In this document: piece by piece, positions 29,508 to 49,460 of the stretch | How the letters are laid out: each line of letters starts with the position of its first letter | Position numbering within the stretch: the stretch's first letter is position 1 | From: Alphaproteobacteria bacterium UBA2903 | GTDB lineage: Bacteria > Pseudomonadota > Alphaproteobacteria > CAAGCB01 > CAG-977 | Length of the DNA stretch: 64,000 nucleotides | Reading direction: 5' to 3' | Assembly: GCA_002349565.1 (NCBI GenBank) | Contig: DEDN01000027.1 | Span: 39,669-103,668, forward strand | Program-made: the position numbers and the translations under genes | Notes under the pieces: generated by a model | Told to the model about the DNA's origin: nothing | Databases searched by the model: none | What the model saw: only the letters and a program-made list of their open reading frames with translations

Positions 29508-32500
29508 CTTGCCGCCCGTGGTAAACGGCCGCCGTTTGTCAGCGTCAGTTCGCCGACGCCCGAAACGGATGTCGCTCTTAAAGCCCCGTTGACCGTCAGC
29601 GATCTGTTGACGACAACGTCCGCCCCCGCCGTCAAGTCGTTCAAGCTTGCGGTATCAAAAACCGCTCCGCCGGTCAGCTTCAGATTTCCGCCCGACACCG
29701 AGTTTCCCGCCGCATTCAGCTGCGCAATAGTCAGCGTCGCCCCTTTCTCTATGGTCAAAGTGCCGCCCGTCGCCGTAAATTCAAAAGCCTTGAATACGCT
29801 GTTCGCCTTAATTTCCGCCGTTGTTTGCCCGACGCGAACCGTCCCGTTGAACGTCCCGCCGAATGTTCCTTTTGCCCCCAAAGTCAGCGTTCCTTCCCCC
29901 GCATCGACCAAATGTCCGCTGTAATCCAATTCGTTGTTGACGGTCAGCTGTCCGTTCAGCGTCAAAGAGCCGCTACCGCCGAATGTCAAATGCGACAGCG
30001 TGTAATCGCCCGTTTTCGTAATTTCGGTGTTTTGTGCGGTCAGATTCAACGTCCCGCCGCCCGTAATGTTTCCGCCGCTCAGAATACCGTGCGACAGCGA
30101 CAGAACCGCACCGTCGGCAAGAACGATTGTTCCCTGATTCAATTCCATTTCATTCAGGGAATAGTTCCCGTTAAACGTCGCGCGGGCGTTTGCGCCGTCC
30201 ATGACAAAGCGCAGCATTTTCGTCGAATCGCCCGCTTTGAAATCGGCTTGAGCCGAATCAATCAGCCGCAAGGTCGCTTCCCCTGCATTGATTGCCCCCG
30301 AAAACGATTTGGATATGGTCAGCGTTTTGTCGGCTGCCACTTTGGCGGTAACGCCGTCTTTGATTTTTAAAGTGCCGATCGTCGAATTGTCGTAAAAGGT
30401 CGTTTCCCCGTTGACAGTCAGATCGGCTAACGTTTTGCTTCCCGTGGCGAGCATTCCGCCCGTGGCGAGCATTCCGCCCGCGCCGACGGTCAAAGAACCG
30501 TCGCCGTAAACATAATAAGGCCCGCCCGACAGGTTCAAAGCGTCCAAAACCGCCAAGCTTGCCCCGGCTTCGATTGCGATGTTGCCGCCCGCAATGAATT
30601 TTTGAATGACGGAACCGCGTTTCCCGCTTGTAAAAGTCGTCAATGCTTCGGTGGTCAAAGTGCCGTTGTTCATCATCGCGTTGGCAAGCGTGCTTTCGGC
30701 TTTCAAAATCAAATTGCCGCCGCTGCTTTCCAAAGTGTTGCCCGCCCGCATGGACAATCCGTTGTTTATTGTCAAAGTCCCGTTCTGCAGTTCCAGCGTA
30801 CCGGCATCCGCTGTCATGAAAATCACATCGTCAATCGTCATATCGTTGGCGATTGTCGCCGTTCCTCTGTAGATTTTCAGCCCTTTCAGCGTCAAATCGT
30901 CCGAACCGCCGAACGTCATGCTCGTGTTGTTCAGCAAGCCGAGAGTCCCCGCACCGCTGATTTTAACGTTGTCCATATTGGACGCCGAGGCATCGAAATC
31001 CAGTTCCGCCCCGCTGCTTAACACGATTTCGTTGCTTGCGGCTTTGAAATCCGAACTTTTGACCGTCAACGCCCCCTTGACGGTCAGTTTGGCATCGTTC
31101 GTTCCGGAAAACCGCAGCTTGTCCACGGTATTGGAGCCGCCCGACAAATCCAGCGTCAAAGAAACGTTCCCGCCGTCCGCCGTCAGCGCTAAAGTCCCGA
31201 AATCGGCAAACGTGCCGCCGATCATCCCCGAACGCCCTTTGCCGTCAGCCGCCAGCTCCAGCGTGCCTTTGCCCGTAAAGTCGGCATAAGGAATGCGGCT
31301 TTGATCCGCCGCGCTGTTGAACGACAGTTTTCCGTCAATGTTGATTTTCGCGTTTTTAAACGCGTTGCCGCCGGTCGATCGGAAAGTGTTCGCCAAAACA
31401 TCGCCCTTGACATTGATGATTGCCGCCCCGGACGAACGCAGATCAAGGTCTAGCCAGTACAGCGTCATATCGGATGACAGGTTTGCCGTGCCGCCGCCGT
31501 TGACTTTGACGGTATGATAAGTCGCATTGTTTTCGGCAATGTTCAAAACGGCGTTTTTCTGAACGATCAATTCAGCCCTGTCCGACGATCCTTTGACGTC
31601 CAAAGCGGCGGAAATCGCCGAATCGTTTCCGACCGTAAACAAAGCCGAATGGGATTCGTGTTCCGTAGAAACGTCCCACTCGAAATCATCCAGATACAGC
31701 GTCCCGCCCCGTTCGAAAACGATTTCGGATTGAACTTCCGTATTGCCCGTATTTTCCTGCCAAAAATAAATTTTTGATTTTCCGTCGGTCAGGCGGTCGG
31801 TTTGCGCGGTTTTAAAACGCACCGACGCCCCGTCCAGCTTCAAAACGGCATTGTTTTTCAGGGACAGGGAATCTTTGATAATGAATGCCGTGTTGACGCT
31901 CGGTCCCGTCACGGTCGTTCCGTCCAGCGTCAGATTGTTCAGCGTGAACGACTGCGCCCCGCCCTTTGTCGTCGCAGACGAATACCCCGTCAAAATTATC
32001 GTGTCGGCATAAACGTCGCCCGAAAAATTCAGCGTGTCCGCCGCGCTTTTCGCCGTCGCGGTCAGCGTCCCGAACGATTTGTTCCCTCCTATGACGGAAA
32101 ACAGCCCCGAACCGTTCAGAACAAGCGTTCCTTCGCCGTAAAGACCGTATTTCGACAGATCCAACGCGCTGTTGACTTCCAAAGTCGTTCCCGCTTCGAC
32201 GGTAACGTCGCCGTTCGCAGTGTAAGTGCCGATTGTGGACTTGCCGCCCTTGAACGTCGCCTTTTGCGCGGTCAACGTTCCCAAAACCGTATTGCTGAAC
32301 GAACTGTCGCCCTGAACAATCAGCGCGCCCTTCGCCCCGTCGATTTTATTGCCCGTCCCCATGGTTACGCCGGATTTCACGGTCAGCGTTTTGCCGCTGT
32401 CGATACCGAGCGTTCCGCCCGTATCCTGCATGAATTTCAGTTTGTCGATGGAAATGCCGGCTTTGATGACCGCCTCTGCTTTGCCGTCGATTTCCAGCCC

Positions 32501-34501
32501 TTCCAGCGTCAGATAGCCGACCGCCGCTTTGCTCAGTTCCAATTTCGAAGAATTCAGCAGCCCCAACGTCCCCGTGCCGATGATATTGGCGGGCAAAGTC
32601 CCTTTGACGTCGAAATAAAGCGTCGAACCGCTGTTCAATTTGATTTTTCCGTTGCCCGACAAAGCGTTGACCGTCAGCTTCCCCGCCAACAAATTGAATG
32701 TTTCGTCGGATGAAAACACCAAATTTTTGATAATGCTGCTGCCGTTTGCGTTGTTGGCGTTGCTCTGCCCCGTAAAATTCAAATCAGCCCCAAGGCGCAG
32801 CGTCCCCAAATTGTCGAAAACGCCCGTAAAGCCAATAGCGGATTGGATGAAAACCGTTCCGTTTCCCGTCAGCGTTCCCAGCCACTTCGTTGCGTCATAT
32901 CGGGAAAAGGGTTTGTTCCAAACAACGACATCCGAAACGTTCAGCTGACCGTCAACCTTGTAAGTCGGAAAGATGTCGGCGGTTTGCACGATTTTTGACG
33001 GATTGAACACCGCTCCGGACTTGACGGTGCTTGTTTTCGCCGTATCCGCGTAAAGGTAATCCGCTTTGACCGTTCCGCCCGAAACGACCCAGTTGCCGCC
33101 GCTGACACCGTAAAAAGCCGAATTGTTCAGATCGACGTATCCTTTGACGATGAGCTTTTTGTATTTGTCGGCATCCGCGGCAAGAGTCAGCGCCGTTGAA
33201 TCGCTGTAGTTTCCGATAGTTGCATAAACGTCTGACGTCCCTGTAACCGCCGTCAGATCCAGCGCCGACAAATCCAGCGTTCCGCCGTTTTTATATAACA
33301 GCGTGCTGTGCAAAGACATGGCAAGTTTTGATGCCCCTTTGTGGGTAACATCCCCCAAAACCAAAACGCCGTCTCTTCCGACCGTCAAGGTCGAATTGCT
33401 CAGCGTCAGTTTGTCGATAATCGTTTTTCCTTTCGAATAAACCGTCGCTTTGCTGTTTGTCAGCAACAAATCTTCGATTTTTCCGTTTGTGGCGGCAAAA
33501 TTAACGTGTTCCGACCCCGCCCCGCCGACGGACATTTTCTGCACATAAAAAGTGTGCGTACCGTCTGTATATTCGCTATGCACAGGAGTACCTATCAGAA
33601 CAGAATTATCCGTTGTTGAAATGTTCAATTCTTTCAGCGGATCGGAAAAAGTGTCGGACGCGCTGTCATATTGCCCGACATTGTGAAACTCGGCTAATCC
33701 GCCTGTAGCAACATACGCCGTAATCGTATGATTGCCCGATAAATAAAGTTCCTCAACAGACGACGCACCTGCGAAGTAAATACTCCCTACTGTAATATCG
33801 TTGTTCAGTATCACCCTTCCGGTATACAGAAACTCATTGACAAAATCCCACTTTCCGTTGATGGTTGAAGTTCCGCCATTGGAAAAACGAATCTCGTTTG
33901 CTCGAACATTTTCGGAATTGAAAACAAGCGTTCCGTCGAATTGATATATTCCGTCCCCGTTTAAGGAACCGCTGAAGTTGATATCGTTCGCTCTGAAAAG
34001 GATAATAGAGTCTGTAGTAGCCGAAAAACTTGCATTTTTTCCGACACTAATAGTATTACCGGCAAAAAATTCAAGACTCCTTTCGGAACCGGAACTGTTA
34101 GTAAAATTCCCGGATTCTATTTGTATGTTACGGGCTTCAAATCCAAAATAATACATACTGTGTTCAAGTGTGCCTAAATTTTTGAAAACAAGATCACCGC
34201 TGGCCATATCATTTGGACTTTTCAGCCCGACGGCAAATGAGCCACCGTCCTCTGTTGTAAAATCGTGCGAACTTCCGTTTGTTGTGTCAATAGTCACCGT
34301 TGTCGCATTTTTCAGTAAATCGGACGGAGCTGTTCTGGGAAACTTTCCGCCGTTTTGAATCAGCAAAGCTCCGTTCCCTTGGTCAATAATGCTGATATCT
34401 TCGGCTATTGCCGGACACGCGAACAGCGCCGTTGTCGTCAACAGCGTTTTCAAAAATCCGATTTTTCTTTTCCGTCGCGTCATAGATATTCTGTCTGACA
34501 A
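29492..34501 (-). CDS. Autotransporter, N-terminal fragment (signal peptide plus 1,640-aa passenger, no barrel)
   Basis: Extended signal peptide MSDRISMTRRKRKIGFLKTLLTTTALFACPAIA, then Gly/Thr/Asn-rich passenger repeats. The ORF ends at a TGA 11 codons after a frame break. Confidence 0.8.
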   Translation of the reverse strand: MSDRISMTRRKRKIGFLKTLLTTTALFACPAIAEDISIIDQGNGALLIQNGGKFPRTAPSDLLKNATTVTIDTTNGSSHDFTTEDGGSFAVGLKSPNDMASGDLVFKNLGTLEHSMYYFGFEARNIQIESGNFTNSSGSERSLEFFAGNTISVGKNASFSATTDSIILFRANDINFSGSLNGDGIYQFDGTLVFNSENVRANEIRFSNGGTSTINGKWDFVNEFLYTGRVILNNDITVGSIYFAGASSVEELYLSGNHTITAYVATGGLAEFHNVGQYDSASDTFSDPLKELNISTTDNSVLIGTPVHSEYTDGTHTFYVQKMSVGGAGSEHVNFAATNGKIEDLLLTNSKATVYSKGKTIIDKLTLSNSTLTVGRDGVLVLGDVTHKGASKLAMSLHSTLLYKNGGTLDLSALDLTAVTGTSDVYATIGNYSDSTALTLAADADKYKKLIVKGYVDLNNSAFYGVSGGNWVVSGGTVKADYLYADTAKTSTVKSGAVFNPSKIVQTADIFPTYKVDGQLNVSDVVVWNKPFSRYDATKWLGTLTGNGTVFIQSAIGFTGVFDNLGTLRLGADLNFTGQSNANNANGSSIIKNLVFSSDETFNLLAGKLTVNALSGNGKIKLNSGSTLYFDVKGTLPANIIGTGTLGLLNSSKLELSKAAVGYLTLEGLEIDGKAEAVIKAGISIDKLKFMQDTGGTLGIDSGKTLTVKSGVTMGTGNKIDGAKGALIVQGDSSFSNTVLGTLTAQKATFKGGKSTIGTYTANGDVTVEAGTTLEVNSALDLSKYGLYGEGTLVLNGSGLFSVIGGNKSFGTLTATAKSAADTLNFSGDVYADTIILTGYSSATTKGGAQSFTLNNLTLDGTTVTGPSVNTAFIIKDSLSLKNNAVLKLDGASVRFKTAQTDRLTDGKSKIYFWQENTGNTEVQSEIVFERGGTLYLDDFEWDVSTEHESHSALFTVGNDSAISAALDVKGSSDRAELIVQKNAVLNIAENNATYHTVKVNGGGTANLSSDMTLYWLDLDLRSSGAAIINVKGDVLANTFRSTGGNAFKNAKINIDGKLSFNSAADQSRIPYADFTGKGTLELAADGKGRSGMIGGTFADFGTLALTADGGNVSLTLDLSGGSNTVDKLRFSGTNDAKLTVKGALTVKSSDFKAASNEIVLSSGAELDFDASASNMDNVKISGAGTLGLLNNTSMTFGGSDDLTLKGLKIYRGTATIANDMTIDDVIFMTADAGTLELQNGTLTINNGLSMRAGNTLESSGGNLILKAESTLANAMMNNGTLTTEALTTFTSGKRGSVIQKFIAGGNIAIEAGASLAVLDALNLSGGPYYVYGDGSLTVGAGGMLATGGMLATGSKTLADLTVNGETTFYDNSTIGTLKIKDGVTAKVAADKTLTISKSFSGAINAGEATLRLIDSAQADFKAGDSTKMLRFVMDGANARATFNGNYSLNEMELNQGTIVLADGAVLSLSHGILSGGNITGGGTLNLTAQNTEITKTGDYTLSHLTFGGSGSLTLNGQLTVNNELDYSGHLVDAGEGTLTLGAKGTFGGTFNGTVRVGQTTAEIKANSVFKAFEFTATGGTLTIEKGATLTIAQLNAAGNSVSGGNLKLTGGAVFDTASLNDLTAGADVVVNRSLTVNGALRATSVSGVGELTLTNGGRLPRAARCWEL

Positions 34502-38193: not shown

Positions 38194-39579
38194 TCAAAAT
38201 CTGAAATAGATGAACGGATTGTATGTTGAAGCAGCCATTGACGCCACAGCCAAAACAAACAGCAAAACCAGTCCCAAATTGACTAACACCAGCCCTGCCT
38301 TGTTGCGTACAAACAAAATATTTTTGCATACGGGCATAGCACACAACGCCGCAATCACAAAAGCGATAATCTCTATATTGTCAATGTAATAAGCCGTCGT
38401 ATAAGAAATATCGCGACCGCGAACAAATCCGAACATATTTTTCAGATATTCAACAGCATACGACAGCGTGTCCGCGCGAAAAACAACCCACCCGATAACA
38501 ACGACGAAAATCGCGTAAGCATGGTGCAAAAACGATTTTGTTTCATTTTTATGCCAACCCGTCAATTTTTCGACAATAATGAACAAACCGTGCCATAATC
38601 CCCAAACAACAAAAGTCCAACTGGCACCATGCCACACGCCTGTCGCCAGAAAAACAATGAACAAGTTAAGCAAATTACGTTTTTTGCCAACCCGATTTCC
38701 GCCTAAAGGAATGTACAGATATTCCTTAAACCACGTTGACAAAGAAATATGCCATCTGTGCCAAAATTCCGTAATGGATTTTGAAATATAGGGATAGTTG
38801 AAATTTTCCAAAAATTTGAATCCGAAAATCGCTCCCAATCCGATAGCCATATCGGAATACCCGGAAAAATCATAAAACAGTTGAAACGAATAAGCTATTG
38901 CCCCGATCCAAGCCGTCAAAGCATTAAATTGTTCAACCGGTTGAGAAAAAATTTTATCGGCAACCGCGCCCAGAGTGTTCGCTATCAGTATTTTTTTCGC
39001 CAGTCCGATGATAAAGCGTTTTATACCGTACACCGCTTTTTCGCTAGACTCTTCCCGATTTGAAATTTGATCGGCGACATCATGATATTTGACAATCGGT
39101 CCCGCAACCAGTTGAGGAAATAATGTAATGTACAAAGCCAATTTTGCCAAATCCCTCTGCGCCTGTGCTTCACGGCGATACACGTCAATCAGATAAGACA
39201 TTGCTTGAAAAGTATAAAAAGAAATGCCGATAGGCATAACAACGTCAATCAGCGAAATATCCGCTGAACACAGCGCATTAATATTTTCAACAACGAAATT
39301 GAAATATTTAAAATAAAACAAAAAACTTAAATCCGCGCAAATCGTGCATGACAAAATCGACCTTGCTTTTTTGCGGTATTTTTCAATACATAGTGCGCCC
39401 GCCCAATTGATAATGATCGTCGCAATCATTATCGCCAGATAATCGGGTTCGCCCCATGCGTAAAATACAATACTCGCAACAAGCAATACATGATTCTTCA
39501 GCTCGCGGCGCGACAAAAAATACAATGTTGCAACGATCGGCAAAAACAAAAACACAAACGTCATCGATGAAAAAAGCAT
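38194..39579 (-). CDS. MBOAT-family membrane O-acyltransferase (AlgI/DltB-like)
   Basis: A multi-TM protein with the motif FWHRWHISLSTWFKEYLYIPLGGNR. The gene is low in GC. Confidence 0.85.
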   Translation of the reverse strand: MLFSSMTFVFLFLPIVATLYFLSRRELKNHVLLVASIVFYAWGEPDYLAIMIATIIINWAGALCIEKYRKKARSILSCTICADLSFLFYFKYFNFVVENINALCSADISLIDVVMPIGISFYTFQAMSYLIDVYRREAQAQRDLAKLALYITLFPQLVAGPIVKYHDVADQISNREESSEKAVYGIKRFIIGLAKKILIANTLGAVADKIFSQPVEQFNALTAWIGAIAYSFQLFYDFSGYSDMAIGLGAIFGFKFLENFNYPYISKSITEFWHRWHISLSTWFKEYLYIPLGGNRVGKKRNLLNLFIVFLATGVWHGASWTFVVWGLWHGLFIIVEKLTGWHKNETKSFLHHAYAIFVVVIGWVVFRADTLSYAVEYLKNMFGFVRGRDISYTTAYYIDNIEIIAFVIAALCAMPVCKNILFVRNKAGLVLVNLGLVLLFVLAVASMAASTYNPFIYFRF

Positions 39580-39583
39580 GGCA

Positions 39584-41251
39584 TTATTTCCTCATAAAAT
39601 CTGGGACTTTTTGATTTTCAAGATATGGGAGATACCGTTCAACTATTTCAAAAACGATAATATCCGATTGCTTTAAAATTTGTTCATCACTAAGTTTAAA
39701 TTCTCTTCGCCATTCAAAAACACTTTCTCTAAAACACATATAATAATAATCAAGCATAGATTTTGAAAACGAGTCCCTAAGAGAAAACAAATTTATTTTA
39801 TTGTCCTTGTTAACACAGTGAACACTATCTCTGCTTTTTGTATCAACGCAATTGTCGCTTTGTACCGTCAAATGTTTATACTTAATATTTTCATACAAGC
39901 CTTTCCTTGTATAAATCATTGAATTTAAATCTCCTTTCGGATACGAAACGAGTTTGAACTCAACATTTAATGACGGCAATTCTGGAAAATCTTTTTTCAT
40001 TTCATCCCACAAAGCCTGATATCCGATAAACGCTCCGTACTGATTCCAATGAGTATCATTCTTCCAATACAATAATCCGTCTTTTTTCGCCGATAAAAGA
40101 TTGTCCCTCGGATAAATGACGTTAATGTCTGAATTTGATTTTATATAATCTACTAATTGATATGTTCTGCTTAACCTATCATCGTTCAATTTTTTATAAG
40201 CAGTCGAAAAGTATTCTCCATATATTTTATTTTTGTCAGGAGCAATAAATAAATAGAATTTCTTTCTGTTTTTTTTGCAGAAAGAATTAATTTCATCAAG
40301 ATACATTAATATTGAATTAAGCTGCTTTTTATTATATAAAATCTTATTTTGCCAATTTTGAATCCCATTATCAAGTTTCAAAAAAATAAAGCCATCTTTT
40401 CCCATCATAGCTTTGTTATTTTCTATACGACTGTTAATGAAATTTTTAAAAACAGACCATAATGACTGCAGTCTTTTTCTGCCGTTAAATCTGTCATTAA
40501 ACCACGCCTCAAAATCGCGCCCGTATTTCAAATTCATCCCGTTTTTCGTTATCAAAGACGGACGCTTGGCTAACATTCTGTTTTCCGTAACGGATTTGTC
40601 GGCGCGATCGATTTTCGACATTGGAACAAACAGCACGGCACACACAACAATAAGCAACGCAACATCAGCCGCAGGAATGCGCGTTTTGATTTTTAAAATC
40701 ATTCCCGCCAACTGCCACCCCGCCAAACAAGACAGCGCAAAAACGCTGAACAGCAGCAATCCGTCAATTTCAATTCCGTGCTTTAATTTCAACGGTCTTT
40801 TCCAAATAAAATACGGATCCTTTTGCGATGAATTTAATTCCAGTATATCGTTTTCAATCTTGTACGAATCGATTTGATTTGGATGAACGTCTGTTTTTCC
40901 TTGCAGCAAATAAACGGTTTTATCGCCTTTTATTTTCAAATTCTTAATCGTTATATTCCCGGGAACGGTTCCAACATCCAGTCTGAATCTTTCGATATAT
41001 TTCACGGGCAACAGCAGCTTGACCTTTCTATAATCAGAATTCAAAACCGCTTTTTGAGTTACGACCTTATTTCCGTTGAATTTCTCGCCATCCGTTTCCG
41101 TATAAAATACTTGAAACGCAATGGAAGAATCGCCCGTTCCTTTGGCAAGAAATTCCACCTCGATCGTCGAAGTCTTGTATAGCCGCGCGCACAACAAACA
41201 ACATACCGTTGCAAAAAAACAGGCTAAACCTAAACGGGATTTGTTAAGCAT
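39584..41251 (-). CDS. AlgX/AlgJ/DltD-like periplasmic O-acyltransferase partner (DHHW family)
   Basis: A signal anchor followed by the KNDTHWNQYGA (D-x-H-W) motif. The gene lies immediately upstream of the MBOAT gene and is low in GC. Confidence 0.6.
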   Translation of the reverse strand: MLNKSRLGLACFFATVCCLLCARLYKTSTIEVEFLAKGTGDSSIAFQVFYTETDGEKFNGNKVVTQKAVLNSDYRKVKLLLPVKYIERFRLDVGTVPGNITIKNLKIKGDKTVYLLQGKTDVHPNQIDSYKIENDILELNSSQKDPYFIWKRPLKLKHGIEIDGLLLFSVFALSCLAGWQLAGMILKIKTRIPAADVALLIVVCAVLFVPMSKIDRADKSVTENRMLAKRPSLITKNGMNLKYGRDFEAWFNDRFNGRKRLQSLWSVFKNFINSRIENNKAMMGKDGFIFLKLDNGIQNWQNKILYNKKQLNSILMYLDEINSFCKKNRKKFYLFIAPDKNKIYGEYFSTAYKKLNDDRLSRTYQLVDYIKSNSDINVIYPRDNLLSAKKDGLLYWKNDTHWNQYGAFIGYQALWDEMKKDFPELPSLNVEFKLVSYPKGDLNSMIYTRKGLYENIKYKHLTVQSDNCVDTKSRDSVHCVNKDNKINLFSLRDSFSKSMLDYYYMCFRESVFEWRREFKLSDEQILKQSDIIVFEIVERYLPYLENQKVPDFMRK

Positions 41252-41260
41252 ATTTTCTCC

Positions 41261-42121
41261 TTATTTTTCATGCAATTTTGCGGTGCGCTTAAAGCTCAAC
41301 AACAGCAGCTTGCCGAATAAATACACTTTCGTTTTGTATCCTTGCGTTTCGATTTTCAGCAAAGGAATAAAGCCGAACAGTTTCACCCTGACCGCGCAAG
41401 CCGCGCGCAGTATAAATTCATCGTACAATGCGGGATGTTCGACTTTCAGCAACGCCTGCACGGCAAACGTCGCCCGCGCCATTCGATCCGCCTGCAGCAG
41501 CGACGTGTTGCTTTCATGACAGCGGTAACGGAACAGCACTTCGGGCAAATTGTGAAATTTTGTGACTTTCATCAGGCGCGCGAACAGAGCATAGTCTTCC
41601 GACGGGGAAAACTCTTCCTCGTAGCGAAGTGCATTGCCGGTCAAGACCGATTTGCGAATCATGCAGGCGGAATGAACGATCGGACAGCCGCGCATCATGG
41701 CAAGCTTGATTTCCTTGTCGTTTTCAGGAAAGTTTGACAGATCTCCGTGCGGAAATCTTTGAATCCTGCACGACACAAGCCCCACATCGGGATGCGCGTC
41801 CAGAAAAGCCGCTTCCCGTTCGAACCGTTCGGGCAAAGACACGTCGTCATGATCCATAACCGCCAAGTATTCGCCGTTTGCCAAATCAATCAGCCTGTTG
41901 CGCGTCCCCGATATACCTATGTTGGCTTCGTTTCGATAAAAGCGAATGCGCGGATCGGCGTAGGATTTGACAACGGATTCAATATCCCCGCCCGTTGAAC
42001 CGTCGTCCACAATGATAAATTCGAAGTCTTCAAGCGTTTGATTCAGCACGCTTTCGATTGCTTCGCGCAGATATTCCTCTTTGGTGTTGAAAGTCGGAAA
42101 CAAAACGGAAATTTTAGGCAT
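41261..42121 (-). CDS. Family-2 glycosyltransferase
   Basis: ISVLFPTFNTKEEYLREAIESVLNQT...FIIVDDGSTGG. Confidence 0.85.
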   Translation of the reverse strand: MPKISVLFPTFNTKEEYLREAIESVLNQTLEDFEFIIVDDGSTGGDIESVVKSYADPRIRFYRNEANIGISGTRNRLIDLANGEYLAVMDHDDVSLPERFEREAAFLDAHPDVGLVSCRIQRFPHGDLSNFPENDKEIKLAMMRGCPIVHSACMIRKSVLTGNALRYEEEFSPSEDYALFARLMKVTKFHNLPEVLFRYRCHESNTSLLQADRMARATFAVQALLKVEHPALYDEFILRAACAVRVKLFGFIPLLKIETQGYKTKVYLFGKLLLLSFKRTAKLHEK

Positions 42122-42698
42122 CGATCAGCTCCGCCAATTCGGGCGTCCTTTTAAGGAAAGTCGCCAGCGTGTTTTGCGCGACATGCAATCGTATGGCGAT
42201 TTGACGGCGCGAATAGCCGCTTTGCAGCAATTGAGCAATTTCGATTTCATGCCCCGACAATTTTGTTCGCTTGTTCAGCGCGCCGTAAGGACGCCCCAGC
42301 TTTTGCCCCGCGGAACGGCGAAGATCCAAGCTTTCCTTGGTCAATCGGGATCGCAGTTCCTCCGTCAAAGCCGCAACTTTTTCGAACATATCCGCCATAA
42401 CCGCCGCAGAGGCAAGATTTCCGTCAAACAGCACGCCGTCGGCGCAAGAATAAACCGTAACACCCCTTTTCAGCAGCACCGCCAGCATTTTGGCAATGGA
42501 AGCGACATCTTTTGCCAGACGGAACGTTTTTTCCAACAGCAAAACATCGCCCCGCCCCAAAGATTCGGGATTGAACGCGGAAGCATTCTGCCAATTGTCG
42601 ATTGGCATCCCGCGCAATTCGGCATAGTTTGAAATTGCCGATTGCTGACGCTTGGCAACTTCATCGCCGTTCTGATCTTGTATAAAAGCGACGTTCAT
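42114..42698 (-). CDS. Serine-recombinase (resolvase/invertase) homolog lacking the catalytic Ser motif
   Basis: The C-terminal two-thirds align with the resolvase at 48549 (RGDVLLLEKTFRLAKDV... / GKLGRP / HTH). The N-terminus reads FIQDQNGDE where a resolvase has Y-x-R-x-S-T-x-x-Q. The gene overlaps the downstream GT2 start by 8 nt. Confidence 0.65.
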   Translation of the reverse strand: MNVAFIQDQNGDEVAKRQQSAISNYAELRGMPIDNWQNASAFNPESLGRGDVLLLEKTFRLAKDVASIAKMLAVLLKRGVTVYSCADGVLFDGNLASAAVMADMFEKVAALTEELRSRLTKESLDLRRSAGQKLGRPYGALNKRTKLSGHEIEIAQLLQSGYSRRQIAIRLHVAQNTLATFLKRTPELAELIDA

Positions 42699-42712: not shown

Positions 42713-45700
42713 TTACAAAAAGTTGATAAAGGAACGGCTTTCGCTCAATAGCAAAACTTGAGTTTTAATGCCCGTACGCTTGTCTTCCACGAATCTAATT
42801 CCCTTTTCGGACAGCCTTTGCTTTGTTTTGCGAATAGTGTCCTGTTCGCCCGCCCGTTCGGCATCGTCGAATATAATGACGAAATCGTCGGCAAGGTTGT
42901 TGTCAACCAGACCGATAATGTTCGTCCTCGGCTGCGGCTGATCGGCGCCGAAAGGTCCGTCAACAACAATCAGCTGATATTTCGTGTCTTGGACAATCGG
43001 CGTCATATCGGCATATTTGCGGCAAGCAATCCCGTTTACCGTAAAAAATTCCAGTTCTTGATGATGAATGCGGATATTGTCCCCTTTTGCCAATTGTGCG
43101 GAATAAAGGTCAATCCAGTTTTTGTCGTTTTCGACAATATCCAGCTTTGCATCGGGATGTTTAAAAGCCGCATATTGAGTCGTCAGTTTGGACGTTTGCC
43201 CCATTCCCATTTCCAAAATTGTTTGAGGATTGGCGTTGTCCAAAACTCTGAACAGCGTGTACAGGAAACCATAATTCGCCGCCCCGCGGAAACAGGTAAA
43301 CGATTTGTCTTTCAGCCAAGCGGTTTGCAAAGTGGTGTCGTGAAGCAAATCGGCAAAATTCAATTCTTGATAATTTTGCCGCGCTTCAGTCTGCGCCTTT
43401 TGTATTTTTTGCTTTAAATCCTGCGCGTTTTCTTCTTGCTTCACAGAAACGTCTTTTGACAACACCGCCAGTTCAGATTTCAGATCAGCCGTTTGCTCTT
43501 TCAAAGTTTCGCTGACATTTGCGTTGATTTCATCGGTTTGACGAGTCAATTCTCCCGTCAAGCGGAACAATCCGTCCTTGGCGTTCAAACCACACTCTTT
43601 AACGGCAAGATTTACCTTTTCGCTTGCCGCTTCCGTCGCCGCCGTCAACAGTTTGAAATCGGACAACAATCTTTCCGATATGCGTTCAATCGCCTTTGCA
43701 TTGGCAAACAAACTGTTTTGCAAAGTCTGGCAATAAGACGTCATTTGATTTTCCAATGCCGTCGCCGCCTCTTCGGACTGCCGCGTGCTGTACATCAGTT
43801 CGTTTGACAGCATGGATGACATGCGGCTTACTTGATCTGTAATTTCCTTAACGGCATTGCGTTCTGTTTCATGGATTGCGGAAACGATCAAATTTGACGC
43901 CTCCGACAACGCTTTTTGCAAACCCGTTTGTTTTTCCGCCAAACTTTTGATTTCGTTGTTCAGATTACCCAGTTCCTTTTTCACGATGTCCTGACGTGAC
44001 AGTGCATCAACGATCTGTTTGCTTAATGCTTGGTGCAATTTCGCAAACAATTCGCCGTTTTCAACGCGATTTTGAGTAATTTCGGCAGACAAAGCGGCAA
44101 AGCGGTTTTCCCGTGTGATTTTCAGTCCCAAAACACGGTAAATCTTCTTGTTCTCCTGTTTGGTAACAGAGAACAAGGGATTAGTTTTTTTTGCTTCCTT
44201 TTTCTGATTTGGCATTTTTTTCACCAACGTTTTGACAATGGAGTTCATATGTCCCAAAACATAATTCGATGAAGGAAACAGTTTTTTAAGTGTATCCGTC
44301 AAATCTGCCGGCGCATAATTGTGTAGCGATTGTTCAAAAGCAATTTGCACCACTTGTCCGTCTTTAACAGGCATTTCATATTTGAAAGGCTTGTCGTGCC
44401 AGACTGTTACAGGGATTTTCAACTGTTCATTGCCGTTGATTTTGATGGATGTGAAATCAATATAAACAGGAAAACGCACATTACTTTTATCACGTTTGTC
44501 TTGCCCTCGGAAAACAATTGACAATTTACCGTCTTTAATTGCCTTTACCGTCATTTTTTGTACCAACGAACTGCCTGTAACAACTTTCCCACGTCCTTGC
44601 GCATTGGAAAGCCACGCAGGCTCGGCAACAGATAAAGTATTTCCTGTTATAGAAATACCATTTTCAGACTTACCAACGTTTTTAACATCCAATCTGAATG
44701 TGTGCAGAGTATCTTCAACACATTTTTCCATTTTACGGCTTAATTTGCGTTTTAATTTTTCCCGTTGTAACAAATTGTACGGGAATAAAATGTATGACAA
44801 CAGCTTTTTTGTACGCTTAATGGTTTCTATATTGTTATAAATTATCTTAATAGTATTATCTATATCGTAATCATTTCTAACATCTCGCAAAAATGTTCCC
44901 CAACGTTTATTGAAAATCTTTTTATTCTTTTCTAATGCTATTTTTCTTCTTGTACTTCCAAATGATGCGTGGCGTTTATGATATACTAATAAATTATCTA
45001 TTAGGACAGTTTTATACCCATTCTTAATAGCCCTTAAATCAAAATCATCTTCTTCACAATACCCACACTCAAAAACTTCATCAAACAAACCTATAGTTTT
45101 AGCGATGTTTTTTCTTACACAAAAACAAAACCCTTCTGGCGTAAACAAAGGATATTTTGGGGAAATTTTTTTATTAATTAAGGCATCTGTTTTTTTAAAA
45201 TCATAAAACAGCGTTTCTTTAATATTAAAAAATCCAGAATTTGTACAAAGCGGAGATGCCGCTGCTATTTTTCTATCACAACTAAAACAAGCAGCAACCC
45301 TATTATCAAACAACGCAGGAATCTTTGTATCGCTATTCAAAAACACAACAACATCATTATTAGCAATTTCAAGAGCCTTATTGCAAGTTTTCAAAAAGCC
45401 AAGGTTTTTCTCATTTCTTATATATTTAAAATTATATTTTTTACAATACTTTTTTACAAAATTTCCTTCTTTTATAGAGGAAGCATCATCAATCACAATA
45501 ACCTCCGTTGACTTTTTTAATTTTGCCTGTCTTAACGATTTCAAGCACATTTTAACATCTTTCACCGCATTATAAACAGGGACAACTACAGATATGCTTT
45601 CTCTATCACTTTCATTTGACCATTTTTTTTCTTCATGTGTCACCATTGTATTTAAATTTTTAGAAAAACACTCCATTGAATTAAATTTAATATAGTGTTT

Positions 45701-47413
45701 TCTGCATTGTTCTTCAAAACTTTTAACTTTATAATCATTAATAATTTTATTCATACATCTAGCCAAATCATCTACATCTTCTGACTTAAATAAATATCCG
45801 TTTTCTCCTTCCGTCAAAGCATATTGAGCACCAACATGATCAGACATAATGACTGGACGTCCCATCATAAATGCTTCTAACGCCACTCTTGATGTTGGTT
45901 CTTCACGAGAGGGAACTACTACACAAGAAATTTTTTCATAAAAATTTCTCATCTCTGTTTTGTCCTTTATTTCAGGAACAAAAATTACACGATCAGACAT
46001 ATTTTTAATTTTTTCATAAAACTTTCCATCAACAACATTACCTACAATATAGCATTCAATTTCTTCTTTTATTTTGTCTAATGCATTTATAAATACATCT
46101 TGTCCTTTTCTGTTTCCTATCGTCCCAATTACAGCGAATCTAATAACACCTTTATTTGCTTTAATTCCCCTATATGAATCTGGAATTCCATGATGAAAAA
46201 CGCTAATATCACTATTATAATATCTGTACTCATTTGAAGAATATTCAGACATCACATATATTGATTTTTGATTTTTCAAAATTCGTTTTAAATCTTGATT
46301 ATCATCAGCAAAATTACTACCTTCTCTGATCCACCATATTGTCGGCATTAGAGATGAAATTTGCTCAACTTCATAATACGGAATTATTGTATTAACAATC
46401 ACAACATCCGAACAAAGCATCCCTCTTAACAAACTCCACATATTCCGATCTATCAATTGAACCTTCATTCCCTTTTCTTCAAACTCTTTTGAAAGAGGTC
46501 CTTCTTTCAATGTCATAATTCGAACTTTGTACCCCATTTTCTGTAAACATTCCGCTGACTGTAATAACGAAATAGGAGCTCCGGTATAAGTCATTTCATG
46601 AGAAATACATAGTATTCTTTTAAAAGAATTATTTTTCTTTTTAAAAAATTTAATTATTTTCTTTTGCATAGAAGAAAATTTGTTATAATCAATCTTCCTT
46701 CCTTCTTTTTTTCCATGCCTAATATAATGCAACAATGGGCATACGCCAGCTTTCTTAACGTCCCCGTACATATTCAAATACGCCGCATTGTTAAATTTTT
46801 TGCTTGGGTTTCTATTGTTTTTCCATCCGTACATTAAATAATGCTCAATCGGATCAATATTACATTCTTTAATTTCAGCATTATTTTTTTTGTAAAATTT
46901 ACAATCGAACAGACTTGAATTTTTTAATTCTAAATACCCATCAATATGTTTGTTATTTTTATCTACATTATGTTTCACCATAACATTTAAAGTAGATTTC
47001 GGATATGTCACAATATTTCTTATTGCTGTTTTTACACTTAAAAATGGGGCAAGACGTTTTTCCTGCAAATGGATATCCGCATATCTATCCTCAAACTGTC
47101 CATGCAGAAGCCAATGCGCTAGCGGATTCATATTCGCTTTGGCGACATCGGGATACATCTGCAGATAGGCTTTGCCGTCAAAGTACGGGGTTGTCGGGCG
47201 GTCTTCTTTCCACCCGATTGTCAAGTAATGCTCCACGGGGTCGGCTTTGGCGGCGGCGACATCGGGATTGTGTTCCAAATACCATTTGGCGTCAAACAGC
47301 GGCGATTTTGCAATCGCGCGATATTCCGGCGCGTATTTTTTCATCCGTTTTTTATATGCTTTTTTGTTAATCAGATGAAAAAAGCGTAAAGTTTTCAAAA
47401 ATCCCCGTGTCAT
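42713..47413 (-). CDS. 1,566-aa multidomain polysaccharide-biosynthesis protein: 4 x N-terminal ~40-aa repeats, GT4, GT2, ~500-aa coiled coil, C-terminal SAM-MTase-like domain
   Basis: The repeats read F(D/N)xxxYLxxxPDVAxAxxNPLxHYLxxGxxE(G/D)RxP. The GT2 domain is VVVPVYNAVKDVKMCLKSL..VIVIDDAS. The C-terminal motif I is TILEMGMGQTS. The start is at MTRGFL, an ATGA overlap with the upstream RgpF-like gene. Confidence 0.75.
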   Translation of the reverse strand: MTRGFLKTLRFFHLINKKAYKKRMKKYAPEYRAIAKSPLFDAKWYLEHNPDVAAAKADPVEHYLTIGWKEDRPTTPYFDGKAYLQMYPDVAKANMNPLAHWLLHGQFEDRYADIHLQEKRLAPFLSVKTAIRNIVTYPKSTLNVMVKHNVDKNNKHIDGYLELKNSSLFDCKFYKKNNAEIKECNIDPIEHYLMYGWKNNRNPSKKFNNAAYLNMYGDVKKAGVCPLLHYIRHGKKEGRKIDYNKFSSMQKKIIKFFKKKNNSFKRILCISHEMTYTGAPISLLQSAECLQKMGYKVRIMTLKEGPLSKEFEEKGMKVQLIDRNMWSLLRGMLCSDVVIVNTIIPYYEVEQISSLMPTIWWIREGSNFADDNQDLKRILKNQKSIYVMSEYSSNEYRYYNSDISVFHHGIPDSYRGIKANKGVIRFAVIGTIGNRKGQDVFINALDKIKEEIECYIVGNVVDGKFYEKIKNMSDRVIFVPEIKDKTEMRNFYEKISCVVVPSREEPTSRVALEAFMMGRPVIMSDHVGAQYALTEGENGYLFKSEDVDDLARCMNKIINDYKVKSFEEQCRKHYIKFNSMECFSKNLNTMVTHEEKKWSNESDRESISVVVPVYNAVKDVKMCLKSLRQAKLKKSTEVIVIDDASSIKEGNFVKKYCKKYNFKYIRNEKNLGFLKTCNKALEIANNDVVVFLNSDTKIPALFDNRVAACFSCDRKIAAASPLCTNSGFFNIKETLFYDFKKTDALINKKISPKYPLFTPEGFCFCVRKNIAKTIGLFDEVFECGYCEEDDFDLRAIKNGYKTVLIDNLLVYHKRHASFGSTRRKIALEKNKKIFNKRWGTFLRDVRNDYDIDNTIKIIYNNIETIKRTKKLLSYILFPYNLLQREKLKRKLSRKMEKCVEDTLHTFRLDVKNVGKSENGISITGNTLSVAEPAWLSNAQGRGKVVTGSSLVQKMTVKAIKDGKLSIVFRGQDKRDKSNVRFPVYIDFTSIKINGNEQLKIPVTVWHDKPFKYEMPVKDGQVVQIAFEQSLHNYAPADLTDTLKKLFPSSNYVLGHMNSIVKTLVKKMPNQKKEAKKTNPLFSVTKQENKKIYRVLGLKITRENRFAALSAEITQNRVENGELFAKLHQALSKQIVDALSRQDIVKKELGNLNNEIKSLAEKQTGLQKALSEASNLIVSAIHETERNAVKEITDQVSRMSSMLSNELMYSTRQSEEAATALENQMTSYCQTLQNSLFANAKAIERISERLLSDFKLLTAATEAASEKVNLAVKECGLNAKDGLFRLTGELTRQTDEINANVSETLKEQTADLKSELAVLSKDVSVKQEENAQDLKQKIQKAQTEARQNYQELNFADLLHDTTLQTAWLKDKSFTCFRGAANYGFLYTLFRVLDNANPQTILEMGMGQTSKLTTQYAAFKHPDAKLDIVENDKNWIDLYSAQLAKGDNIRIHHQELEFFTVNGIACRKYADMTPIVQDTKYQLIVVDGPFGADQPQPRTNIIGLVDNNLADDFVIIFDDAERAGEQDTIRKTKQRLSEKGIRFVEDKRTGIKTQVLLLSESRSFINFL

Positions 47414-48285
47414 TTTATAACCCTTCTGTGATAAACGGGTATGCGGCAGATTTTGACCAGCCGATACCCGCGCGCCGTTGTTTTCGTGTTCCAAACAAAA
47501 TGTTTCAGCCGTTTCAGCGGTTGAGCCGTTTCAAATTTCCAATTATGACTGGAGCCTTTGATTTTATAGCCTTGGGCGACGACCATGCACCCGAACACCC
47601 GTTCCAGCACATGCGCCAAAGTGCCGTCTTTAACGGCAGAATCGGACAAAGCAAAATCCTGCAGAGAATAAGCGTTTTTAATCGGCTCCAGCAGCTTTGC
47701 CCTGACCGCGAACATCGTTCCCGCCGCGAAAGTGATTTTCGGCGGATATCGCCCCGTCAAATTTTTCATCGCCGACAAAACGCCGCGGCAAACGTTTTTT
47801 GACGCTCCAAAATCCGATGTAATCAAATAACGGGACGCGATCATCCCGCAATCCGCATCTTTGTCAAACAAATGCAAGTTGCGCAAAACGGTCCGCCTGT
47901 CCGAAATCAAAGACTGATACATCAGACCGGTCCACATTTCGCGGGACAGCCAATATTTGTTGATTTGACTGTCACAGCCGCTCTTATCGTTTTTGGTATG
48001 CAGTTTCAGCACAAAATCGTAATCGGACAAATCGATTTGATGCAGAAAATAGATAAACGGTCCGACGTCAAAGCCGCGGTTTTCCACGACGAAAATTTTC
48101 GCCTGCGGGAAAAATTCCAAAATCCGTTTGCTTAACAGCGCATCCGATTGCGTCAGCGTTACAAACAAATCCCAATCGCATACATCCAAATTTGACAGAC
48201 TGTCGGCTATTTTCGCCCACATATCCGTGTAATACAAATGCAGGTGAACCGCGACTTTTGCCCTGTTTTCCTTGTCAGCAACCAC
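47410..48285 (-). CDS. Rhamnan-synthesis protein F (RgpF)-like
   Basis: A 291-aa protein starting VAVHLHLYYTDMWAKIADSLSNL..DLFVTLT, typical of the Rhamnan_synth_F family. Confidence 0.65.
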   Translation of the reverse strand: MVADKENRAKVAVHLHLYYTDMWAKIADSLSNLDVCDWDLFVTLTQSDALLSKRILEFFPQAKIFVVENRGFDVGPFIYFLHQIDLSDYDFVLKLHTKNDKSGCDSQINKYWLSREMWTGLMYQSLISDRRTVLRNLHLFDKDADCGMIASRYLITSDFGASKNVCRGVLSAMKNLTGRYPPKITFAAGTMFAVRAKLLEPIKNAYSLQDFALSDSAVKDGTLAHVLERVFGCMVVAQGYKIKGSSHNWKFETAQPLKRLKHFVWNTKTTARGYRLVKICRIPVYHRRVIK

Positions 48286-48548
48286 TACGAATTACCATCT
48301 TTAACGTCCATCCAACGGGGAATTGATATCAGAAACGGACGTTTGTGATACGTTTCGCCGTCCGTTTCCCGCAAAAACAAAAAAAGTCGAAACTCCTTGT
48401 TTTAAAAGAATATTCATAATTTCGTGATTTATAGGACGCGGCACAATTTATAGCAAAAAATGTCTTGATTTAAACGTCCCTTTATTTGCATACGTTCGCA
48501 CCCCAATTCTGATAAACAACCCGAAAACAAACCAAGGAGATTCAGCCA

Positions 48549-49157
48549 ATGATTTATGGATACTGCAGATGTTCAACAGACAAGCAAACCGTCGACAATC
48601 AGGAATTTGAAATCAAAAGCTTTGCCGAACAAAACGGACTGACCGTCGAAATATGGGTTACCGAAACCGTTTCCAGCAGAAAACCGCTTGAACAGCGTCA
48701 ACTCAACAAAGTATTGAAAAAACTGAAAGAAGGCGACACTTTAATTGTAACCGAAATATCCCGCCTTGGGCGCAGTTTGATGGAAATCATGAGCATTTTG
48801 CAAAAGTGTCTGGACCGCAACTGCATGGTTTGCGCCATCAAGGAAAACTACCGCTTGGGCAACAATCTGGAAAGCAAAGTGCTGGCGTTCGCGTTCGGCA
48901 TTTCCGCCGAAATCGAAAGAAAACTGATTTCCGACAGAACAAAAATGTCGCTTAACAAATTGAAAAGCGACGGCGTAAAACTGGGGCGACCTTTGGGGGC
49001 GAAAAGCAGAAATCTCAAATTGTCGAAAAACAAGCTTAAAATCTTTGAATTGCTGGACAAAGGCGTTCCCAAAGCCCAAATCGCCCGAATGCTGGGCGTC
49101 GATAAAATGACCCTGCACCGTTTTATCAAACTGACGACATCCGACAATCAAAATTGA
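48549..49157 (+). CDS. Serine recombinase (resolvase/invertase family), apparently intact
   Basis: MIYGYCRCSTDKQ carries the catalytic Ser. A GRPLG hinge and a C-terminal HTH follow. Confidence 0.85.
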   Translation: MIYGYCRCSTDKQTVDNQEFEIKSFAEQNGLTVEIWVTETVSSRKPLEQRQLNKVLKKLKEGDTLIVTEISRLGRSLMEIMSILQKCLDRNCMVCAIKENYRLGNNLESKVLAFAFGISAEIERKLISDRTKMSLNKLKSDGVKLGRPLGAKSRNLKLSKNKLKIFELLDKGVPKAQIARMLGVDKMTLHRFIKLTTSDNQN

Positions 49158-49167
49158 GGGAGGGAGT

Positions 49168-49370
49168 ATTCACCGAACTCCATTACCCAACTAAAAAAGC
49201 CACCCTTTGGGGTGAAATCACATTATGGCGGGAGCGGGATTTATTCGGGGCTGTCGCCCCTCACCCCTGCGGGGCCGCCGTTCCGGCGTTGCCTGCGCTT
49301 CGCTTCGGCTGAACCTGAGAGGTTCATTCACCGAACTCATTACCCAACTAAAAAAGCCACCCTTTGGGGT
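49168..49370. repeat. 46-47-bp direct repeats flanking a ~110-bp head-element copy that contains a degenerate tRNA-fMet 3'-end copy
   Basis: attcaccgaactc(c)attacccaactaaaaaagccaccctttggggtg occurs at 49168-49214 and 49325-49370. The intervening ggcgggagcgggattt...cccctcacccctgcgggg resembles both the tRNA-fMet 3' end (gtgcgggagtgggattt) and the element at 600-678. Confidence 0.6.
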
Positions 49371-49380
49371 GGCTTTTTTA
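49349..49380. terminator. Bidirectional terminator between the recombinase gene and tRNA-fMet
   Basis: aaaaaa-gccaccc-tttg-gggtggc-tttttt. Confidence 0.65.
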
Positions 49381-49382
49381 GT

Positions 49383-49460
<78 letters not shown>

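Follow-up and report, generated by a model that had tools for sequence, protein, structure and literature searches.

In rfb, kps, and cps loci, low-G+C (GC), serotype-specific glycosyltransferase (GT) genes lie between conserved flanks and are exchanged by homologous recombination. Described ruler systems for surface glycans comprise WbdD with WbdA in Escherichia coli O9a and Klebsiella O3, WbbB in Klebsiella O12, and ORF6 in Klebsiella O7 (PMC11231755, PMC3482155), and their coiled-coil terminators occur either fused or as a separate protein (PMC11231755). Invertible glycan promoters have been described for the polysaccharide (PS) loci of Bacteroides fragilis, with the serine recombinase Mpi, and for the Salmonella T1 antigen, with a FimB-like tyrosine recombinase (PMC11294581). 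Here, we analyzed a 64,000-nucleotide (nt) stretch of contig DEDN01000027.1 from Alphaproteobacteria bacterium UBA2903 (GenBank assembly GCA_002349565.1), referred to below as the window, which carries a single gene, here called the mosaic gene, that encodes N-terminal repeats, two GT modules, and a C-terminal methyltransferase-fold domain. With a probability of roughly three in four, relatives of "Alphaproteobacteria bacterium UBA6411" among the gut Alphaproteobacteria share a surface-glycan locus that is hypervariable and phase variable, and this gene is one of its alleles. Variable low-GC GT content between conserved flanks and invertible promoters for surface glycans are familiar; exchange of modules in frame, a reversed single-chain architecture, and a dead recombinase paralogue are unusual. 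An earlier sequence-only reading of the same DNA did not include the features that define the locus, namely the invertible segment, its invertase, and the dead resolvase paralogue.

Base composition of the mosaic gene

A compositional mosaic within one intact open reading frame (ORF) was confirmed. The sequence-only reading had given GC contents of ∼55% for the 5′ part, ∼30% for the core, and 45 to 50% for the 3′ part; the core figure held, and those for the two ends were too high. Computed values were 47.0% GC with a third-position GC content (GC3) of 0.52 for positions 47050 to 47413, 29.5% (GC3, 0.22) for 44850 to 47049, and 42.4% (GC3, 0.47) for 42713 to 44849. Fourteen ordinary genes of the window, divided into 87 blocks of 100 codons, served as the background (GC3, 0.67 ± 0.07). 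The low-GC core lies ∼6 standard deviations (SD) under this background, and both ends of the gene also fall 1.5 to 2 SD below it, so that "host-like," as the first ∼370 bp had been labeled, was an overstatement (0.52 against 0.67).

As the earlier reading had anticipated, GC3 was not uniform along the gene. In a sliding window it is ∼0.63 over codons 21 to 100 and 0.17 to 0.25 over codons ∼120 to 880; the 5′ step is sharp (0.63 to 0.17 across codons ∼100 to 140), and the 3′ return is gradual, extending across codons ∼880 to 1200 and reaching ∼0.5 by codon 1100. The core is rich in Lys, Asn, and Ile, and GC at first and second codon positions (GC1 and GC2) drops too, with the greatest shift along the gene, from ∼0.55 to 0.22, found at synonymous third positions.

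Conserved frames and exchanged cassettes

Five alleles from two related gut Alphaproteobacteria species were compared, the fifth type having been found with the N-terminal 100 amino acids (aa) as the query. Allele A (L001, L002, and L004) encodes a fused 1358-aa protein with GT2 modules. Allele B (L012 to L014) has a 1098-aa GT2 protein, PMM-like and cytidylyltransferase-like genes, and a separate 496-aa helix-methyltransferase gene. The window and L015 represent allele C. In allele D (L003), window-type repeats and GT4 are joined to a B-type 3′ part (92% identity over 5.1 kb), and allele E (L035 to L037) has a stand-alone 157-aa repeat ORF, a GT2 gene, and a 1588-aa protein. Locus order is common to all of them: a divergent invertase gene, a short intergenic region, an RgpF-like gene, the large GT gene or genes, and a resolvase-like gene.

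Two parts of this arrangement form conserved frames that are 86 to 99% identical across the five alleles (Table 1). The 5′ frame holds the invertase gene, the switch, the RgpF-like gene, and the first ∼100 to 139 codons of the mosaic gene (repeats 1 and 2); the 3′ frame holds the long helix, the methyltransferase-fold domain, and the resolvase-like gene. The constant 5′ part of the mosaic gene shares 86% nt identity with the UBA6411-type alleles and 99 to 100% with same-species alleles, and it corresponds to the stand-alone 157-aa ORF of allele E. In alleles B and D, a separate gene of 495/496 aa (MTLKNKNPLF...) begins at the 3′ frame, which in the window and allele A is fused in frame. Between alleles A and B, the genome flanks are 99.1 to 99.8% identical and the cassettes are unrelated. 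All cassettes have ∼30% GC, and the frames have 44 to 52%. The frames are themselves compositionally atypical rather than host-like, and they occupy different chromosomal sites in the two species.

In the alignments with alleles A and B, the outer junctions are base precise, one after NPLAHW at the end of repeat 2 (∼47112) and the other at NPLFSVTKQ (∼44185). Further junctions are nested inside the variable cassette, at 46999 and 44818 relative to allele E and at 45623 relative to allele D. The 5′ junction of allele E is 113 bp deeper than the A/B junction, in the linker before repeat 3, and the block unique to the window in that comparison (44818 to 46999) is the 2.2-kb segment of ∼30% GC. 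The allele D crossover falls at the GT4/GT2 linker, at aa ∼597; a 0.5-kb patch (∼45950 to 46450) is 73 to 79% identical within GT4 sequence that is otherwise 97 to 100% identical between the window and allele D. We read the low-GC mosaic as exchange of cassettes and modules between two conserved frames, the probability given above applying to the explanation as a whole. The earlier reading, in which foreign modules were grafted onto a resident N terminus, was thus essentially right in that the low-GC block is replaced in other alleles; its single anchor was not, since the 3′ frame is equally conserved, and neither was the word resident, the N terminus being itself compositionally atypical and its chromosomal site differing between species.

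Like O-antigen and capsule loci, this locus has conserved flanks around variable, low-GC GT content, and its alleles differ within a species whose flanks are 99% identical. In contrast to those loci, both cassette edges here lie within one reading frame, and catalytic domains are exchanged between constant N- and C-terminal modules that are fused or split depending on the allele.

Database searches returned one identical protein, from a gut metagenome (2 contigs, 8 member sequences), and the other matches were partial. Apart from this identical copy, no full-length orthologue was found in the protein database, that is, no one protein to which every segment could be traced, and the segments have different nearest relatives; both outcomes accord with the sequence-only reading. 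P0002 is 88% identical over aa 1 to 614 only, P0003 is 71% identical over aa 1 to 146 and 84% over aa 1056 to 1566 with a different middle, and P0093 is 80% identical over aa 1 to 131 only. The nearest nonallelic relatives of the low-GC core (44 to 49% aa identity) directly follow rmlA, rmlC, rmlD, and rmlB and an RgpF-like gene. Their contigs are 72 to 78% identical at the nt level to loci of Elusimicrobiales metagenome-assembled genomes (MAGs), where the GT gene is likewise lower in GC than its neighbors, and 869-aa relatives of the core themselves carry all four repeats. No match was found for the low-GC core in plasmids or for the whole 7-kb element in phages. A search for DUS (Neisseriaceae) and USS (Pasteurellaceae) sequences was likewise negative, as was a megablast comparison with E. 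coli genomes. We conclude that the donor pool is shared among gut bacteria.

Architecture of the encoded protein

The protein reads, in order, repeat pair 1, repeat pair 2, GT4, GT2, a helix, a beta-sandwich, a long helix, and the methyltransferase-fold domain. The four N-terminal repeats of ∼40 aa noted earlier were all found; they are ∼38 aa long and form two tandem pairs (aa 40 to 77 with 78 to 115 and aa 169 to 206 with 207 to 244). Both GT domains of the earlier reading were borne out by Pfam, with all GT4 and GT2 matches exceeding the Pfam cutoffs, while the N-terminal repeats and the middle region had no Pfam match. What had been described as a coiled coil of ∼500 aa is, in AlphaFold2 (AF2) models, a helix at aa 861 to 905, a beta-sandwich (aa 907 to 1031), and the long helix (aa 1107 to 1344), the last without a Pfam domain. 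For the beta-sandwich, Foldseek gave no significant PDB fold match, and CBM35 and PA14 appeared only at E values of >0.04; a carbohydrate-binding module would be only a guess. P0123, P0125, P0127, and P0129 also combine this beta-sandwich with the helix and the methyltransferase domain.

The C-terminal Rossmann domain with an S-adenosylmethionine (SAM) motif proposed earlier gained support at the fold level. Its family comprises 1193 representative clusters in an exhaustive HMMER search and is always C-terminal or stand-alone. Among 32 members scanned, 23 weakly match PF21729 (IRX15/GXM), which is the plant glucuronoxylan methyltransferase family, and 15 match Methyltransf_24; the best E values among relatives of the domain were 5e−6 for PF21729 and 4e−5 for PF13578, and the family profile reached an E value of 0.02 against PDB sequences. 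AlphaFold modeling from the family alignment gave a mean predicted local distance difference test score (pLDDT) of 95.4 and a predicted template modeling score (pTM) of 0.92. Foldseek matched this model to 285 PDB entries with E values of ≤1e−3, headed by cation-dependent O-methyltransferases and TrmR (E value, 2e−6; TM score, ∼0.5). The putative SAM motif I reads E-M-G-M-G-Q-T and so misses the third Gly of E/D-x-G-x-G-x-G; in the family, the two Gly residues are invariant and the Glu is nearly so. At the fold level, these models support a class I O-methyltransferase-like domain.

An in-frame ATG (M1066) preceded by GGTGA lies at 44194 to 44222 (codons 1064 to 1077), just upstream of where other alleles begin the separate helix-methyltransferase gene. 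The helix-methyltransferase tail might also be translated separately from M1066.

By analogy with the ruler systems, the GT4 and GT2 modules would polymerize a glycan together with the RgpF-like protein, the ∼238-aa helix would act as the spacer, and the distal methyltransferase would cap or terminate the chain. The glycan is probably rhamnose containing, given that relatives of the GT4-GT2 core sit after rmlA, rmlC, rmlD, and rmlB and an RgpF-like gene. Polymerase, ruler, and terminator are thus probably united in the mosaic protein, with the order of the domains reversed. With WbdD, WbbB, and O7 ORF6 it shares polymerizing GT modules split from a predicted chain-modifying enzyme by a long, candidate helical spacer, with the putative terminator at the far end; a putative helix-terminator unit that is fused to the GTs or free, as in the alleles here; an association with the rhamnose pathway, here in relatives; and, with O7 ORF6, an additional beta-sandwich domain. 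It differs from them in having the GTs N-terminal and the methyltransferase C-terminal, in its N-terminal FDxxxYL repeats, and in a predicted methyltransferase activity of the GXM/Methyltransf_24-like kind with no kinase, the GT activities likewise being predicted. Nor does the operon, in a window that is partly annotated, contain a Wzm/Wzt ABC transporter (ABC-2 type).

The invertible switch and its invertase

A serine DNA invertase of the Gin/Hin type is encoded divergently from the operon. Its best PDB match was the Gin invertase (4m6f; E value, 7e−13), aligned from residue 1; the alignment runs end to end and places YCRCSTDKQ on Gin YVRVSTNDQ, catalytic Ser included. Between this gene and the RgpF-like gene, two 12-bp inverted repeats (IRs) that agree at 11 of 12 positions enclose a 127-bp core (Table 1). 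The site pattern AAASGGACRTTT has exactly two matches in the 64 kb, in opposite orientations. Serine recombinases make a 2-bp staggered cut, which the near-palindromic arrangement of the sites around a central dinucleotide (GA or TC) fits; the invertase would cut each 12-bp AAACG-NN-CGTTT site at its central dinucleotide.

Natural populations contain the switch segment in either orientation. L013, a contig of the sister species, carries 141 bp reversed relative to L012, to which it is 98.9% identical over 14.6 kb, and also relative to L014. Within the species of the window, L035 has the same chromosomal neighbors as the window and L036, and 151 bp are inverted at 98% identity. On the minus strand of the core, a candidate promoter (TTGCTA at 48456 to 48451, a 17-nt spacer, and TATAAA at 48433 to 48428) faces the RgpF-like/GT operon and is conserved in both species. 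It faces the operon in the window, L036, L003, L001, and L012 and faces away in L013 and L035; the state of the window is therefore read from sequence as a putative "ON." A pattern scan of metagenomes for further flipped copies gave 12 matches, of which 2 were true relatives, both ON; one of the two is L028.

The operon runs from 48285 to 38194 (∼10 kb) and comprises the RgpF-like gene, the mosaic gene, the dead resolvase gene, and genes for a GT2, an AlgX-like SGNH protein, and an MBOAT protein. The ATG of the mosaic gene (47413) overlaps the stop of the RgpF-like gene as ATGA, an overlap (47410 to 47413) that the sequence-only reading had correctly taken as translational coupling. Since all genes lie on one strand with overlaps or gaps of ≤14 nt, the switch probably controls the whole operon, and inversion of the promoter segment would switch all 10 kb of it.

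In having a short IR-flanked candidate promoter segment upstream of a glycan operon, a recombinase gene alongside, and both orientations in nature, the switch resembles those of the B. fragilis PS and Salmonella T1 loci. It differs in its gut alphaproteobacterial host, its Gin-like invertase, its 12-bp sites and 127-bp core, and the dead invertase paralogue encoded by the operon. The invertase shares with Gin, Hin, Cin, and Pin a length of ∼200 aa, an N-terminal catalytic Ser, a C-terminal helix-turn-helix (HTH), and palindromic sites with an asymmetric central dinucleotide. Unlike them, it would invert a candidate glycan-operon promoter rather than tail-fiber or flagellin segments, and its visible site spans 12 bp, against 26 bp for theirs.

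Three further observations concern the switch region. In L028 (1 to 720), the ClpB-invertase-switch side is 96.7% identical to the UBA6411-type locus; past the far IR the sequence differs and has no long ORF, and it may be another allele or a deletion. In L035, where the switch is flipped, gene calling splits the RgpF-like gene into two ORFs (9122 to 10004; 196 and 101 aa), which suggests a frameshifted gene in this OFF-state strain. The palindrome TTCTTTTAAAAGAA (46615, 48397) was set aside as not significant: 4 matches were observed where 0.84 would be expected, and 4 were also reached in 2 of 100 shuffles.

A catalytically dead resolvase paralogue

The resolvase-like gene at the end of the 3′ frame, which overlaps the start of the next gene, encodes a paralogue with AFIQDQNGDE where the invertase has YCRCSTDKQ. 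The active-site Arg and Ser are lost and 10 aa are deleted, with the HTH intact; PDB resolvases align to it only from aa 46 onward. The family forms 48 clusters, and all aligned members show the same losses. In L019/L020, L021/L022, and L016, a gene for a similar dead paralogue comes first behind a segment that is flanked by IRs and has related sites, and sugar-modification or rml/RgpF/GT operons follow it in these gut contigs. L019 and L020 are 99.97% identical apart from a poly(A) tract (∼9720 to 9735; A9 in one and A8 in the other) near the 3′ end of the active resolvase gene, giving products of 242 and 206 aa; the change could be slippage or a sequencing error.

With low confidence, the paralogue may bind the switch sites and bias or lock inversion, or cross-regulate other loci. 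A more specific proposal, which we offer as speculative, is that it is a new inverton accessory factor, a "pseudo-invertase," made only when its own operon is ON, which would bind AAACG-NN-CGTTT and lock its own switch or hold other glycan loci OFF. Together with the swappable domains in constant frames, it would then form a self-stabilizing antigen-variation module shared by gut Alphaproteobacteria and Elusimicrobiales-like bacteria. Its function in that case would parallel UpxZ-type cross-regulation in Bacteroides; limited literature searches found no paper describing such an accessory factor.

TABLE 1 Features of the locus and aligned segments, by position in the window
Feature	Position	Strand	Remarks
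MBOAT gene	38194-39579	minus	Operon cargo; low GC (35 to 40%)
AlgX-like SGNH gene	39584-41251	minus	Operon cargo; low GC (35 to 40%)
GT2 gene	41261-42121	minus	Operon cargo
Dead resolvase paralogue	42114-42698	minus	194 aa; 31% identical to invertase; ends 3′ frame; family members in several gut lineages: L016:2343-2909, L019:10001-10579, L021:10001-10585
Mosaic gene	42713-47413	minus	Single intact ORF; 1566 aa
Class I methyltransferase-fold domain (predicted)	42716-43381	minus	C-terminal; motif ILEMGMGQT; part of 3′ frame
Long helical region	43382-44095	minus	aa 1107-1344, ∼238 aa; candidate coiled-coil spacer; AF2
Variable cassette relative to alleles A/B	44185-47111	minus	aa ∼101-1076; 31% GC; GC3, 0.26
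Beta-sandwich domain	44321-44695	minus	aa 907-1031; AF2 pLDDT, 82-93
GT2 (GT-A) module	45098-45592	minus	aa 608-772; Pfam Glycos_transf_2, 2.2e−19
GT4 (GT-B) module	45725-46621	minus	aa 265-563; Pfam Glyco_trans_4_5, 4.5e−19; Glycos_transf_1, 2.6e−26
Constant 5′ part of mosaic gene	47112-47413	minus	aa 1-100; repeats 1-2
RgpF-like gene	47410-48285	minus	291 aa; first operon gene, in 5′ frame; Pfam PF05045, 90 bits
IR, operon side	48333-48344		AAACGGACGTTT; central dinucleotide GA
Invertible core	48345-48471		127 bp; inverted in related contigs
IR, invertase side	48472-48483		AAACGTCCCTTT on plus strand; AAACG-NN-CGTTT near-palindrome; central dinucleotide TC
Gin/Hin-type serine DNA invertase	48549-49157	plus	202 aa; motif YCRCSTDKQ; C-terminal HTH; Pfam Resolvase, 5e−31
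tRNA-Met	49383-49460	minus	Beside invertase end of element
Aligned with UBA6411-type alleles A/B	49129-47113/47123 and 44184/44192-42130		86-87% identity; nothing alignable between
Aligned with allele D (L003, same species)	49346-45623 and 44192-42041		95% and 99.3% identity; nothing alignable between
Aligned with allele E (L036)	49198-46999 and 44818-42041		98.9% and 99.0% identity; nothing alignable between

Origin of the mosaic and alternative explanations

In the explanation that we favor, which comparison of the alleles bears out, homologous recombination in the kilobase-long frames swaps whole ∼30% GC cassettes between strains, and occasional crossovers at interdomain linkers swap single modules. 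Both cassette edges lie inside coding sequence; therefore, the product is chimeric and GC steps stand at the edges. The sequence-only reading had instead placed the origin of the mosaic in recombination within the repeat array, that is, one crossover between resident FDxxxYL...NPLxHY repeats and those of an incoming gene, by which foreign GTs were fused. Repeats of this kind are common to many unrelated GT proteins and hence offer patches of homology, the A/B junction falls at the NPLAHW motif that ends repeat 2, and the 869-aa relatives of the core bear all four repeats. We nevertheless regard this origin as unlikely. No evidence for it was found at the junctions, one of which coincides with the end of repeat 2 and the other with the linker that precedes repeat 3: that of allele E is 113 bp further in (46999), repeats of different lineages are 40 to 50% identical as proteins, a poor RecA substrate, and a single crossover cannot account for the 3′ junctions (44818 and 44185), which are just as sharp. 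Same-species flanks, by comparison, are 99% identical over several kilobases on both sides, enough for replacement by double crossover, and homologous exchange through the frames is therefore the simpler mechanism. Recombination from repeat to repeat is possible as the historical origin of one junction.

Two other accounts are far less probable than a repeat graft. Shuffling of GT modules by the two recombinase-family genes, in the manner of a shufflon or of Gin/Cin tail-fiber segments, would suit the position of the Gin-like invertase and the second resolvase-family gene, which bracket the variable region, with UBA6411-type homology ending at 49129 and 42130. It was rejected for want of recombination sites at the cassette junctions: AAASGGACRTTT is confined to the two ends of the 127-bp switch, and relaxed searches found no sites at 47112, 46999, 45623, 44818, or 44185. 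The second recombinase moreover lacks the catalytic Arg and Ser in every aligned family member, and the locus keeps no reserve of alternative silent cassettes, with one allele per genome. Slightly less probable still is that there was no transfer at all and that the GC steps stem from amino acid composition or selection in a vertically inherited gene, or from a chimeric assembly. The Lys/Asn/Ile-rich core, in which GC1 and GC2 drop as well, and the match of the window to a metagenome contig could be taken in this sense, but the largest shift is at synonymous third positions, and the segment between the junctions has no nt similarity in sister alleles whose flanks are 86 to 99% identical. An artifact of composition or assembly was rejected on this synonymous-site shift and on the recurrence of the same junctions, with intact ORFs, in independent NCBI, ENA, and Logan assemblies; the identical protein is also on record from 2 contigs and 8 member sequences.

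Some points weigh against exchange of cassettes and modules at a phase-variable glycan locus. Every compared sequence is a metagenome assembly, and no donor can be named for the low-GC modules, their nearest nonallelic relatives being just 44 to 49% identical at the aa level. The spacer (aa 1107 to 1344) is a continuous helix in an AF2 monomer model with low pLDDT. The C-terminal 230 aa had no Pfam match even at an E value of 10, and the PDB sequence search was empty too; the methyltransferase would be assigned from its modeled fold and from weak family-level HMM matches, with no match at a curated threshold. In the annotated parts of the window there is no Wzm/Wzt-type ABC transporter, rml gene, or initiating transferase, and the TTGCTA-N17-TATAAA promoter was read by eye and was not listed by a consensus scanner.

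Remainder of the operon and surroundings

The Pfam match of the RgpF-like protein is above the cutoff yet covers only profile positions 267 to 503 of 503, the C-terminal half, and is not a full-length match. Neither the size nor the position of this short form varies among the alleles or in the Elusimicrobiales-type loci, where it stands beside rmlACDB. At the operon's distal end, the MBOAT protein is 62 to 74% identical at the aa level and 69% at the nt level to an Elusimicrobiales MAG locus (window 38194 to 41251 against L007:17889-20844), and the AlgX-like SGNH protein is 33% identical at the aa level to its counterpart in the same MAG. Sequence comparison suggests an interphylum transfer of MBOAT and AlgX-like SGNH as a putative glycan O-acylation pair.

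Near the tRNA-Met gene, a duplication involves 49166 to 49214 and 49326 to 49387. In it, a 34-nt perfect direct repeat, a duplicated half of the terminator hairpin downstream of tRNA-Met, has copies 157 bp apart at 49181 to 49214 and 49338 to 49371, and the spacer between them is just 78% identical between the window and L003. The repeat may be an insertion or excision scar at the tRNA; no matching 34-nt repeat was found at the far end of the element. A tRNA-associated genomic island was rejected, given that both repeats are on one side and that no integrase of the tyrosine or large serine type is present.

Adjacent transporters are limited to two MsbA-type half-transporter genes (ABC_membrane plus ABC_tran) on the other strand. 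Two very large adjacent ORFs at 25821 to 34501 (1228 and 1669 aa), with no Pfam match on record, are called as one 2638-aa gene in a matching metagenome contig.

Biological implications

At this locus, cassettes are exchanged at the level of domains within one reading frame, and the constant repeat and helix-methyltransferase modules accept different GTs, in fused or split form. If the predicted activities hold, the alleles would be a natural demonstration of modular polymerase-ruler-terminator machines that could be useful for glycoengineering. With the candidate promoter switch, control of surface glycans by invertible promoters would extend to uncultured gut Alphaproteobacteria. Such switches are accompanied by a conserved family of recombinases that are catalytically dead, and the role of this family in them is directly testable.

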